64,000 bases of DNA from Escherichia coli (GCF_013315695.1 NZ_CP054353.1); one strand, 5' to 3'. Counted from the first letter of the stretch, positions 40,295-53,561 are shown. Numbers and translations: made by a program. Notes: generated by a model not told the origin, from the letters alone.

Positions 40295-41188
40295 TCACCC
40301 GCGCTCTTGCATCAACTGCTGGGCCAGCGCCTTCAGTTCTGGCAGATATTTTTCATCTACCGGACCAAACGGTTTGCGGCACAGCGGCACAGAAACGACA
40401 TCCATATAATGGAGGACAGTTTTCAGGCCGCGGAATACGCCCGTTTTGATCAGTAAATCAATGACTTTATTGCACTCAGTTTGCAGTTTCTGCGCGGTCT
40501 GGATATCGCCTTCTTTCAGCGCCTTAACAATGCCCTGATAACGCCAGCCCATGATGTTGTAGGTACTACCGATACCACCATCAGCGCCCGCCAGAAGACC
40601 AGAGGCGAAGATTTCGTCGTAACCGTTGTAGAGCACCAGATCCGGATGTTCACGACGGATCTGCTCCATCTGATAGAGATCGCCAGAGGTCTGTTTCAGC
40701 GCGCCAACACCTGGCAACGTAACCAGAGTGTTGATCTGATCCAGGCTCAGTTTAACGCCACTTAACGCCGGAATGTTGTACACCACCATCGGCAAACCAT
40801 CCGCTGAATCAATAATTGCCCGATAGTGATCGCAGTGTTCTTCAAAGCTGAAAGGATAGTAGAACGGCGTAACGGCAGAGACGGCATCGAAGCCATAACG
40901 TTTAGCCGATGCCGCAAGTTGTTGGCTTTCAGCAGTGCTGACGCAACCTACGTGAGCGATGAGTTTAATCTTGCCTTTCGCCTCTTCGGCGACGATTTCC
41001 AGTACCTGTTCACGCTCGGAAAGGCTTTGTACAAAGGCTTCGCCGGTAGAACCACCCACGTATAAACCGTCGATGCCCTGCTGAATATTGAACTGAACCA
41101 GGCGACGCAGACTCGCTTTATCCAGTGCTTGTTGTTGATCAAAAGGAGTCAGGAGTGCGGCCATTACGCCACGTAAATTCGTTGCCAT
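40295..41188 (-). CDS. nanA: N-acetylneuraminate lyase
   Basis: 297-aa [58 protein letters not shown]... Confidence 0.96.
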
Positions 41189-41223
41189 AAATACCTCTGA
41201 AGTGATGCTTGTCTGATAAACGA

Positions 41224-41246
41224 TATACCTTTATACCTGTTATACC
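41224..41246 (-). promoter_or_regulatory. NanR operator (three GGTATA repeats) in the nanA promoter
   Basis: Plus-strand TATACC at 41224, 41232 and 41241 (GGTATA x3 on the nanA strand), 36-60 bp upstream of nanA start; matches the known NanR-binding GGTATA repeats. Confidence 0.65.
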
Positions 41247-41309
41247 AGATCAATTAAGCAACACCCCATACAGAAAGCTTATAATGCGATCTGCTTCACT
41301 AAAGTGGCA

Positions 41310-42101
41310 TTATTTCTTTTTGTTGGTGGTCTGACCGAAGGCGTGCCAGGTAGCAGAGACGCTGTTGAGATGCGATTGCAACGCGCGATCGGCTTCATCG
41401 GGATCGTGGCGGCGGATCGCGTCAACGATCGCAATATGCTGTTGATAGCTAACGTTGTTATGCTCGTGCAGAGCCTGATCAGCCACGGTTGGACGTGCGG
41501 CGATCAGCCAGTCGAGCAGGGCAACGTGGATCGCCATGAAGATTGGGTTACCGGGGATCTCCGCCAGCACGCGGTGGAAATCAACGTCTGAACGAATGAA
41601 TGCCGCGTTGTTATCCAGCGACTGACTGTTGATTTCCAGTGCTTTTGCCAGCAAATCGATTTGCTCATCGGTGGCGTGTTCAGCCGCATAGCGCACCAGG
41701 CTGGATTCAAAGAACAGACGTAATTGTTCGAAATGGGCAATCCCGCCAGGATGAGAAAGGAAATCTTTCGCCATGCCGGAAAGCTCGCCGATGATGGTGT
41801 CCGCAGAAGGACGTGAGACGCGAGCGCGTTCGCCGTTGTTTATCTGCACCAGACCTTTGCGTTTTAACGCTGCCAGCGCTTCACGCACCGAAGGACGCCC
41901 GACGTTAAAGAACGCCATCAGTTCGCGTTCAGACGGTAATTGTTCACCTTCGCCAAATTCACGACGGCGGATCATCTGTTCCAGCTCTTCTTCCACCATT
42001 TCGGAGAGTTTTTTACGCGCCAGCGGGCGGCTGCGTAAGTTGCGGCCAATTGCAGGTGAAGAATCTTCGGTTTGCGAATCAAATGCGTTCATAAGGCCCA
42101 T
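41310..42101 (-). CDS. nanR: GntR/FadR-family repressor of sialic acid catabolism NanR
   Basis: 263-aa [78 protein letters not shown]... Confidence 0.95.
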
Positions 42102-43648
42102 TCTGTAAGGTCAGTGTGATTAACATCATCAGTGACATCCTATCACAGGATTGAAAGTAGGGGGAAATGGCGGGGTTTTCTCTTTGTGCCTCATCATTAC
42201 TATAATTAACTGAATAATTAACTATTGCGAAAAATTAATGTAACGCAGATAAAAACATCCCGACTGAATTATTCATAAGACTATTAACAAGTATTATGAA
42301 TATTATGAATGTGTTCTTACAAAATAATCATAAGCGCATATTTTTTAATGAAAAATCACCTCATCTACAATTAAAAACACGACATCCGCACCATAAATAG
42401 CCTTGCAAAAAATATAACATCATTGTTTTCAATCTGCCGTTTATGGGATTGACCGTTTTCTTTTGACACGGAGTTCAACAATGTTCGGCATAATTATATC
42501 TGTCATCGTATTAATTACGATGGGCTATTTGATCCTGAAAAACTACAAACCTCAGGTGGTGCTGGCTGCCGCAGGTATCTTCCTGATGATGTGCGGTGTC
42601 TGGTTAGGGTTCGGTGGTGTGCTCGATCCCGCCAAAAGCAGCGGCTACTTGATCGTCGATATTTATAATGAAATCCTGCGCATGCTGTCCAACCGCATTG
42701 CCGGATTGGGGCTGTCGATTATGGCAGTGGGTGGTTATGCCCGCTATATGGAGCGCATAGGGGCCAGTCGCGCGATGGTGAGCTTGTTAAGCCGCCCGTT
42801 AAAACTCATTCGCTCGCCGTATATTATTCTGTCGGCAACTTACGTCATCGGCCAAATCATGGCGCAGTTTATTACCAGCGCCTCCGGTCTGGGTATGTTG
42901 CTGATGGTCACCTTATTTCCGACGCTGGTGAGTCTGGGAGTAAGTCGCCTCTCTGCGGTGGCGGTTATCGCAACCACGATGTCCATTGAGTGGGGGATTC
43001 TGGAAACGAACTCCATTTTTGCTGCCCAGGTCGCAGGAATGAAAATTGCCACTTACTTCTTCCACTACCAGCTTCCGGTCGCCTCTTGCGTCATTATCTC
43101 GGTGGCGATCTCCCACTTTTTCGTGCAACGCGCTTTCGACAAAAAAGATAAAAATATCAATCACGAACAGGCAGAGCAAAAAGCTCTCGATAATGTCCCG
43201 CCGCTCTATTACGCCATTTTACCGGTGATGCCGTTAATCCTGATGCTCGGCTCGCTGTTCCTTGCCCACGTCGGGCTGATGCAGTCAGAACTGCATCTGG
43301 TGGTGGTGATGTTACTGAGTTTGACGGTGACGATGTTTGTTGAGTTCTTCCACAAGCATAACTTGCGCGAAACAATGGACGATGTGCAGGCGTTTTTTGA
43401 CGGCATGGGTACGCAGTTTGCCAACGTGGTAACGCTGGTGGTCGCGGGTGAAATATTTGCGAAAGGCTTAACGACGATTGGCACTGTCGATGCGGTTATC
43501 AGGGGGGCGGAGCATTCTGGTCTGGGCGGTATTGGCGTGATGATTATTATGGCGCTGGTCATTGCCATTTGTGCCATTGTGATGGGCTCAGGCGGTGATG
43601 CTGCCAACTTACTGATTTAGTGTATGATGGTGTTTTTGAGGTGCTCCA

Positions 43649-43924
43649 GTGGCTTCTGTTTCTATCAGCTGTCCCTCCTGTTCAGCTACTGACGGGGTGG
43701 TGCGTAACGGCAAAAGCACCGCCGGACATCAGCGCTATCTCTGCTCTCACTGCCGTAAAACATGGCAACTGCAGTTCACTTACACCGCTTCTCAACCCGG
43801 TACGCACCAGAAAATCATTGATATGGCCATGAATGGCGTTGGATGCCGGGCAACAGCCCGCATTATGGGCGTTGGCCTCAACACGATTTTACGTCACTTA
43901 AAAAACTCAGGCCGCAGTCGGTAA
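43649..43924 (+). CDS. insA: IS1 InsA
   Basis: 91-aa [94 protein letters not shown]. Confidence 0.96.
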
Positions 43925-44346
43925 CCTCGCGCATACAGCCGGGCAGTGACGTCATCGTCTGCGCGGAAATGGACGAACAGTGGGGCTATGTCGGGGCTAA
44001 ATCGCGCCAGCGCTGGCTGTTTTACGCGTATGACAGGCTCCGGAAGACGGTTGTTGCGCACGTATTCGGTGAACGCACTATGGCGACGCTGGGGCGTCTT
44101 ATGAGCCTGCTGTCACCCTTTGACGTGGTGATATGGATGACGGATGGCTGGCCGCTGTATGAATCCCGCCTGAAGGGAAAGCTGCACGTAATCAGCAAGC
44201 GATATACGCAGCGAATTGAGCGGCATAACCTGAATCTGAGGCAGCACCTGGCACGGCTGGGACGGAAGTCGCTGTCGTTCTCAAAATCGGTGGAGCTGCA
44301 TGACAAAGTCATCGGGCATTATCTGAACATAAAACACTATCAATAA
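43843..44346 (+). CDS. insB: IS1 InsB (transposase made as InsAB' by -1 frameshift)
   Basis: 167-aa [67 protein letters not shown]...; overlaps insA in the -1 frame. Confidence 0.93.
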
Positions 44347-44637
44347 GTTGGAGTCATTACCCGCTCAGGCAATGCGCCGTTTATGTCATTTGCCAGTCTT
44401 ATTCCGAATATCGCAGCCGGACTACATGTACCAGCGGTTGTAATGATTATGCCGATGCATTTTGCCACGACGCTAGCGCGCGCTGTTTCGCCGATTACTG
44501 CGGTGGTGGTCGTTACGTCAGGAATTGCAGGCGTTTCGCCTTTTGCGGTAGTGAAGCGGACAGCGATCCCCATGGCAGTCGGTTTCGTGGTGAATATGAT
44601 TGCCACTATCACGCTATTTTATTAAGCGATTAAAAAG

Positions 44638-44664
44638 ACAAAACAGGCCGCCAGGGCCTGTTTT
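44638..44664. terminator. Bidirectional intrinsic terminator between convergent dcuD and sspB
   Basis: AAAA-CAGGCC-gccag-GGCCTG-TTTT. Confidence 0.7.
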
Positions 44665-44668
44665 AGTA

Positions 44669-45166
44669 TTACTTCACAACGCGTAATGCTGGTCGACCAC
44701 CGCGTGGTGGCTGCGGTGGTTCATCGTCAGGATGAGTGTCATCATCGTGATCTGGCTTGTCGCCATCAATAACCGACATAACGGTTTCGTTGTCTGCCGA
44801 TGCCTCTTCATCATTCATGATGCTGGCATCTTCATCGTAGGCAGCTTCAGGTTCAAACATCGTGCCTGCGCCATTTTCACGGGCGTAGATAGCCAGCACG
44901 GCAGCCAGCGGCACAGAAACCTGACGCGGAATGCCACCAAAGCGCGCGTTAAAGCGCACCTCATCATTCGCCAGTTCCAGATTGCCGACAGCTCGCGGCG
45001 CAATGTTGAGTACGATTTGCCCGTCACGCGCATATTCCATAGGAACCTGCACGCCAGGGAGCGTCACATCCACCACCAAGTGCGGCGTGAGCTGGTTATC
45101 CAGCAACCACTCATAGAATGCACGCAGCAGATAGGGACGACGTGGTGTTAGCTGTGACAAATCCAT
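44669..45166 (-). CDS. sspB: ClpXP specificity-enhancing adaptor SspB
   Basis: 165-aa ORF MDLSQLTPRRPYLLRAFYEWLLDNQLTPHLVVDVTLPGVQVPMEYARDGQIVLNIAP...; C-terminal ...GGRPALRVVK. Confidence 0.95.
   Translation of the reverse strand: MDLSQLTPRRPYLLRAFYEWLLDNQLTPHLVVDVTLPGVQVPMEYARDGQIVLNIAPRAVGNLELANDEVRFNARFGGIPRQVSVPLAAVLAIYARENGAGTMFEPEAAYDEDASIMNDEEASADNETVMSVIDGDKPDHDDDTHPDDEPPQPPRGGRPALRVVK

Positions 45167-53087: not shown

Positions 53088-53561
<474 letters not shown>

Follow-up and report, generated by a model that had tools for sequence, protein, structure and literature searches.

We have shown here that the AT-rich spacer between nanR and dcuD in Escherichia coli contains a genuine two-unit, 9-bp direct repeat that has repeatedly gained or lost whole units and whose two-unit state appears, from comparison with related genera, to be ancestral. 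We lean towards an explanation that combines a conserved cis-acting element with replication slippage, in which the repeat would form the distal edge of a conserved control region for dcuD and would be a candidate binding site for a DNA-binding protein. A purely neutral origin for the repeat is possible though doubtful, and the other readings that we considered, as a nanR promoter element, as part of a leader peptide or as the scar of an insertion sequence, are all improbable to differing degrees.

The nanR-dcuD spacer

The repeat was analyzed within a 64,000-nucleotide stretch of genomic DNA (the window) in which the gene order is nanT, nanA, nanR (minus strand), a 379-bp spacer (42102-42480) and dcuD (Table 1). 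A reading of this DNA from the sequence alone had placed the repeat in an AT-rich leader of roughly 380 bp ahead of dcuD, and this description is borne out, with the spacer having a GC content of 0.26-0.33 and dcuD running from 42481. The spacer is 96.8% identical to that of K-12 and 100% identical to that of strain AR_0077, and the window is from an E. coli strain other than K-12. The MG1655 annotation contains no features inside the spacer. The block of the spacer next to nanR is likely to be where the nanR promoter sits. Within the gap between nanR and nanA, at 41224-41246, TRF reports an 8-9-bp repeat TATACCTGT in 2.7 copies; on the opposite strand this reads as GGTATA repeats, which we take to be the known NanR operator of the nanA promoter.

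A complete 768-bp IS1 at 43594-44361, with GCTCAGGC on either side (8 bp, or 9 bp if one mismatch is allowed), interrupts dcuD, which is thereby a pseudogene in the strain from which the window derives. This IS1 junction is found in just 2 of 5,426 complete genomes, those of MSB1_4I and NZ_OZ547117.1. Strain WEM25 has an IS1 within the nanR-dcuD spacer itself, 58 bp upstream of dcuD (L003, 3247-4058); gltD adjoins the other side of this element, and a deletion has therefore removed the nan genes together with most of the spacer. In O157:H7 strain 3-5-1 the dcuD annotation is 1365 bp long, 3 bp below that of K-12, a difference that points to an in-frame codon indel close to the 5' end. Further afield, a 2762-bp contig binned as Negativicutes (a MAG) carries a DcuD homologue with 75% identity to that of E. 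coli, and homologues at 42-46% identity are found in Succiniclasticum and Acidaminococcaceae genomes, suggesting transfer or, for the 75% contig, a binning error.

Table 1. Positions of features in and around the nanR-dcuD spacer, in window coordinates.
Feature	Position	Strand	Basis or remark
nanR, divergent neighbor	41310..42101	-	gene context
nanR-proximal block	42102..42180	-	conserved in Citrobacter, loosely in genomes without dcuD
Equivalent of the RegulonDB sigma-54 dcuD site (here TGGCGG...)	42168..42184	+	upstream of the repeat; absent from Citrobacter
Imperfect inverted repeat, left arm TATTCATAAGACT, holding ATTCATAA	42270..42282	.	pairs 12/13 with 42290-42302 (longest pairing)
Perfect tandem repeat, 9-bp unit	42292..42310	.	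TRF: period 9, 2.1 copies, 100% match
Sigma-70-like TTGTAA-18 nt-CATAAT, -10 hexamer in repeat unit 1	42293..42322	-	promoter scan, 9/12 match
Conserved dcuD upstream region, with the repeat as distal edge; blocks include AATAATCATAAG and invariant AAAAATATAACAT	42293..42480	+	Escherichia-Citrobacter alignment
Small ORF in frame with the repeat (MNIMNVFLQNNHKRIFFNEKSPHLQLKTRHPHHK; MNIMNVFLQNNHK...)	42296..42400 (ATG to TAG)	+	open in 20/20 genomes
Equivalent of the H-NS-bound segment	42387..42498	.	mapped from PMC8894471; begins 77 bp downstream of the repeat
Block AAAAAATATAACATC; central 13 columns AAAAATATAACAT invariant in 20 sequences	42407..42421	+	conservation
dcuD, cut by IS1 (43594-44361) after nucleotide 1113	42481..44625	+	gene context, IS1 junction

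The tandem repeat and its inverted copy

The 64-kb window contains exactly two occurrences of the 9-mer TATTATGAA, at 42292-42300 and 42301-42309 in head-to-tail order, so that the exact occurrences and the TRF match both agree with the tandem as first described. The sequence around 42262-42310 reads GACTGAATTATTCATAAGACTATTAACAAG TATTATGAA TATTATGAA TGT. An alternative register, ATTATGAAT repeated twice at 42293-42310, is just as perfect and is the one that is still perfect in K-12, where the tract reads CATTATGAA TATTATGAA T. The equivalent of the repeat in MG1655 is 3374681-3374698, 188 bp upstream of the dcuD ATG. Since a perfect 9+9 tandem arises in only 0.3% of 20,000 dinucleotide-preserving shuffles of the 379-bp spacer, and the whole 64-kb window has 2 perfect 9-bp tandems against 0.21 expected, the repeat is real and not an effect of composition.

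The sole other perfect 9-bp tandem in the window, TTAAAGCAT in 2.1 copies at 53122-53140, lies near the start of a 156-aa ORF which we take, from its N-terminus, to be ArgR, and encodes a KAFKAL stretch of that ORF. The spacer also has a second repeat, at 42202-42225, composed of ATAATTAACTGA and ATAATTAACTAT (10/12 identical, period 12). Escherichia sp. MOD1-EC7003 is without exactly one 12-bp unit of this repeat, and the 42202-42225 tract therefore also varies by whole units.

An inverted copy of the repeat had been reported at 42268-42275. Such a copy exists, with a match of 8-9 nt, but it is located 3 bp away: ATTCATAA at 42271-42278 reverse-complements TTATGAAT, an 8-mer of the tract in a shifted register, and TATTCATAA (42270-42278) is the complement of TTATGAATA. 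In shuffled sequences an inverted 8-nt match within 60 bp has a chance rate of 8.9%. The C found at 42274 in the window is a T in K-12 and other strains, and the hairpin z-score is -3.5 on the window haplotype, -1.3 in K-12 and ~0 in E. whittamii and Citrobacter. We judge the inverted 8-mer to be incidental, haplotype-specific and outside the element, since the match is only 8-9 nt long, turns up in ~9% of shuffles, differs between E. coli strains and lacks conservation. It does not, then, belong to the arrayed half-sites among which it had been counted. An inverted repeat or cruciform as part of the element was rejected, with the hairpin significant on the window haplotype only and lost in K-12 and the outgroups.

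Conservation of the repeat across genera

A search for DcuD loci identified three non-coli Escherichia lineages and 16 Citrobacter loci, with 15 Citrobacter loci coming from distinct species and retaining nanR divergent from dcuD. The cross-genus set comprises 20 sequences, from 5 Escherichia lineages and 15 Citrobacter species. Two perfect ATTATGAAT units are present in E. whittamii and in Escherichia sp. E1V33, the tract of Escherichia sp. MOD1-EC7003 is ATTATGATT ATTATGAAT, and Citrobacter has a degenerate pair in the homologous columns (for example TTCGTGAAA TTTATGAAT ATGAAC). Judged by these comparisons two units are the ancestral state, because the perfect pair is present in E. whittamii and E1V33 and the degenerate pair in 15 Citrobacter species.

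The pattern T..TGAA...T..GAA..TG, in which TGAA and GAA are 9 bp apart, shows little or no variation among the 20 sequences, as aligned at the tract in one MAFFT run in which the conserved positions are few and the DNA is AT-rich. Similarity between Escherichia and Citrobacter begins exactly at the repeat and then continues to the dcuD ATG; the ~110 bp leading from the nanR-proximal block to the repeat are unalignable between the genera. Within the conserved region the AAAAAATATAACATC block contains a -10-like TATAAC at 42413-42418, and we infer that this block is a putative dcuD core promoter. The extent of this conservation, from the repeat as far as the dcuD start codon, favors a predicted protein-binding element. 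The suggestion of a regulator-binding array thus survives in part, as a putative array made up of the TGAA/GAA pair, 9 bp apart in 20/20 sequences at the edge of the conserved region, of which the inverted copy forms no part.

Copy-number variation within E. coli

We surveyed 5,426 complete E. coli genomes, about 4,340 of which have the nanR-dcuD spacer, querying them with tracts of 1, 3 and 4 copies that were either natural or synthetic. Three copies are present in 5 genomes (BS15R-A, G5, MEW, FDAARGOS_448 and Z1002) and one copy in 30, made up of 26 with identical O145:H28-type sequences together with 401651, an O39:H21 strain, 23CRST050 and TUM1886. All the remaining spacer-bearing genomes (about 99%) have two copies, and a 4-copy tract occurs in none of the about 4,340. 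Variant alleles, with one or three copies, thus account for about 0.8% of genomes. A motif that was both invariant and unbound had been expected to be probably incidental AT-rich sequence; across the strains compared, the copy number is 1, 2 or 3, and the tract is therefore not invariant.

On alignment, the alleles are separated by a single whole 9-bp unit, and their SNP haplotypes are distinct. The two-copy strains PapRG-06-5 and UTME-3 differ from the O145 one-copy allele over a 112-bp query by the 9-bp unit alone. The one-copy state is found on at least 5 SNP backgrounds and the three-copy state on at least 4, giving at least 9 in total as counted from the alignment; TUM1886 (one copy) and FDAARGOS_448 and Z1002 (three copies) have distinctive SNPs in common and represent one haplotype. 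That the variants lie on at least nine different haplotype backgrounds indicates at least nine independent gains or losses of a unit. Among 12 aligned E. coli sequences, variability in the tract is confined to the base before each unit and the base after it, and the E. coli alignment contains no substitutions inside the unit cores.

Recurrent gain and loss of whole units indicates slippage or unequal pairing, and we infer slippage as the mechanism by which copy number changes. The description of the tract as slippage-prone therefore holds, at a low rate: whole 9-bp units have been gained or lost, in 30 one-copy and 5 three-copy genomes. The tract is mildly unstable and not hypermutable because about 99% of genomes have two copies, although this figure is not evidence of selection, as two-copy repeats mutate slowly anyway.

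About 1,037 of the 5,426 genomes have neither dcuD nor the spacer. In such genomes, perhaps of phylogroup B2, a divergent nanR (~85% identical at its 5' end) is located 107 bp from sspB, as in Z247 (L014, 3101-3207).

A proposed conserved element subject to slippage

Our favored explanation unites these two sets of observations. An old two-unit direct repeat would mark the distal edge of a conserved dcuD control region, ~188 bp ahead of the start codon. The two units are identical in Escherichia, each has a conserved TGAA/GAA core with the cores 9 bp apart, and their likeliest function would be as a candidate site at which a DNA-binding protein acts on the dcuD promoter, which is normally silent. 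Between units that are both identical and adjacent, slippage during replication or unequal pairing would occasionally drop or add exactly one of them, producing the rare one-copy and three-copy alleles, one of which is fixed in the O145:H28 lineage. Several considerations count against a cis-element. The published H-NS-bound segment leaves out the repeat, and dcuD mRNA is unchanged in an hns mutant. The element is dispensable, since a successful lineage has kept a one-copy allele and about 1,037 genomes are without the region, and the silence of dcuD leaves the putative regulatory role unobserved.

Some of these considerations lend weight to the alternative that the repeat is a neutral by-product, namely a slippage-born short tandem with a drifting copy number and no role in an unconstrained AT-rich spacer, the resemblance to Citrobacter then reflecting a shared AT-rich composition and general constraint on promoter regions and not a specific site. 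Copy number is variable and a single copy is fixed in a whole lineage, the region is missing from about 1,037 genomes, dcuD is silent, no regulator matches the tract (YpdB having been tested numerically), the H-NS call excludes it, and the window has perfect short tandems at other places, such as within argR. What makes this alternative doubtful in our view is that TGAA/GAA at a fixed 9-bp spacing is found in 20/20 sequences from Escherichia and Citrobacter while no alignment is possible immediately upstream, that every outgroup has two units, and that the E. coli alignment shows no substitutions in the unit cores.

A further reading, to which we give little credence, is that the 9-bp copy number is a heritable dial on the expression of dcuD (or nanR), acting through the number or phasing of putative activator or anti-silencer sites. 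If this were true, the one-copy allele of O145:H28 would represent a regulatory difference and not drift.

Other readings of the repeat

The repeat might instead provide the -10 hexamer of a distal, minus-strand promoter for nanR, such that copy number would set the level of NanR and the expression of the sialic-acid genes. A single unit would leave a 9 nt spacer and a dead promoter, and two or three units would place CATAAT 18 nt from the -35 hexamer. A promoter scan does find TTGTAA-18-CATAAT at 42322-42293. In addition, laboratory evolution recruiting the nan-operon kinase NanK selected an IS5 insertion in the nanR-dcuD spacer, alongside mutations that the authors of that work tie to nan regulation, and this selection fits a dependence of nanR on the sequence of the spacer. 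However, the 2 promoter-like sites in the scan compare with 2.2 in shuffles, which is the chance frequency, and the hexamers are not conserved in Citrobacter. Furthermore, genomes without dcuD keep just ~75 bp of nanR-proximal DNA before the sspB terminator, and because they retain this ~75 bp upstream of nanR the nanR promoter is probably proximal. The portion of the supplementary start-site data available to us contains no minus-strand start near 42286. We therefore regard a distal nanR promoter at the repeat as improbable.

A still less probable reading, and one that we find difficult to support, is that a small leader peptide is specified upstream of dcuD, with its N-terminus (MNI MNV...) encoded by the repeat. 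Each 9-bp unit corresponds to three codons, so that changes in copy number stay in frame, an ORF of 16-34 codons opens at a homologous ATG, GTG or TTG in 20/20 genomes, and the pattern N-[MV]-x-[LVF]-x-[NI]-[NY]-H-[KN]-x-[LI]-F recurs. Against this, variability by codon position is 0.68/0.49/0.54, with the third position not the most variable, pN/pS is 1.01 with the other frames no worse, the stop position shifts to give lengths of 16 to 34 codons, and the ORF is unannotated in MG1655; nor is the Shine-Dalgarno sequence conserved across the genomes compared. On the pN/pS value, the missing codon-position signal and the unconserved Shine-Dalgarno sequence we rejected the small ORF as coding, and the constraint appears from the aligned sequences to be on the DNA rather than on a peptide.

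It is scarcely credible that the 9-bp repeat is the scar of a departed insertion sequence of the kind that makes 9-bp target duplications (IS1, IS10, IS50 or IS903), even though IS1 is active at the locus, both in the dcuD of the window and in the WEM25 spacer. There is no insertion sequence remnant between the units, two units are already present in E. whittamii and, in degenerate form, in Citrobacter, and a target duplication cannot yield three-copy alleles. Moreover, precise loss of an insertion sequence normally takes away one copy of the target duplication.

We also considered whether the repeat coincides with a site for a characterized regulator or sigma factor. The ARG box, the DnaA box and the sites for Fur, Cra, KdgR, NagC, Fis, IHF, CRP, FNR and sigma-54 do not fit the tract by eye, comparisons that serve as leads only. 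The YpdB (LytTR) motif GGCATTTCAT, taken from the yhjX promoter, was rejected, as it does not match at the repeat and its score for paired sites falls inside the shuffle range. The published DcuR footprint at LEE1, TTATCTCACATAATTTAT, has CATAAT alone in common with the tract. A text search for the repeat sequence gave no occurrence in the papers that it covered, and an Rfam scan of 41000-45000 returned nothing relevant.

RegulonDB lists a sigma-54 dcuD promoter in K-12, TGGCAG-N7-CTCTT, and the portion of a sigma-54 ChIP-seq table available to us has one peak assigned to dcuD, which is antisense and 2253 bp away, and none in the spacer. A sigma-54 promoter at the repeat was rejected, as the listed site is elsewhere and weak, and the positions that call for GG and GC are occupied by AT in the repeat.

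Data for nucleoid proteins had been proposed as a check on the repeat. Forrest et al. 2022 include dcuD in their list of 'H-NS bound' genes (PMC8894471), with the bound segment at U00096.3 3374775-3374886 (their Supplementary Data 3 and Source Data). This segment covers the dcuD proximal promoter and start codon and excludes the repeat, so that the published H-NS calls, which were the only binding data found, place binding 77 bp downstream of it. The dcuD mRNA is unchanged in an hns mutant (logFC 0.08; PMC8894471). The repeat as an H-NS nucleation or silencing site was rejected on both counts, that it lies outside the bound segment and that dcuD does not respond in the mutant. Listed among the H-NS-bound sites is a Cappable-seq start at 3374874 (42486 in the window) that is ~8.7-fold stronger without H-NS (PMC8894471). 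It is five bases inside dcuD and is taken to be on the minus strand, directed toward nanR, in which case its transcript would cross the repeat. The literature describes dcuD as transcriptionally dormant, with no expression in most of the conditions tested.

Discussion

The gene dcuD has long stood as a 'silent' transporter gene with no known inducer or regulator. What is new here is that the distal edge of the conserved dcuD upstream region can be set at the repeat, together with the TGAA cores and the natural 1-, 2- and 3-copy alleles. The edge, cores and alleles are concrete targets for finding what turns dcuD on. Copy number is in addition a possible minor lineage marker, for example through the single copy in O145:H28.

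The closest likeness is to the slippage-generated VNTR and SSR polymorphisms of bacterial intergenic DNA, which similarly have identical head-to-tail units and whole-unit alleles (here 1, 2 and 3) on unrelated haplotypes. The dcuD tract has the marks of this class, with identical units, whole-unit alleles and independent recurrence. In contrast, the tracts used in MLVA or involved in phase variation are hypermutable and multi-copy, whereas the dcuD tract has two copies and about 0.8% variant genomes. Phase-variable promoter repeats, such as those of Haemophilus and Neisseria, are alike in being associated with a promoter and in that copy number could alter regulatory spacing, the dcuD repeat lying upstream of its promoter. 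Those repeats, however, are positioned between the -35 and -10 elements, while the dcuD tract is short and ~124 bp upstream of the inferred start. We rejected the dcuD tract as a phase-variable contingency locus, given that it has 2 units only and 0.8% variant genomes.

A second likeness is to direct-repeat operators, as bound by response regulators or formed by tandem MetJ boxes, which share with the dcuD tract adjacent units, a conserved core, a fixed spacing and a position upstream of a transporter gene. The core positions and spacing of the dcuD tract are conserved across two genera (20 sequences), as would be appropriate for an operator. Operator periods are ~10-11 bp in the OmpR and PhoB types, 21 bp in the LytTR types and 8 bp for MetJ, and the 9-bp period of the dcuD tract fits none of these arrangements. 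AT-rich promoters silenced by H-NS provide a third comparison, with the spacer GC of 0.26-0.33, the silent gene and the listing of dcuD as H-NS bound all in keeping with this class, but the H-NS segment begins 77 bp beyond the repeat on its dcuD side, and loss of H-NS does not derepress dcuD. Seen against these systems, the dcuD tract belongs to a familiar type, that of small repeat polymorphisms changing at a low rate, and is a modest feature of the locus.
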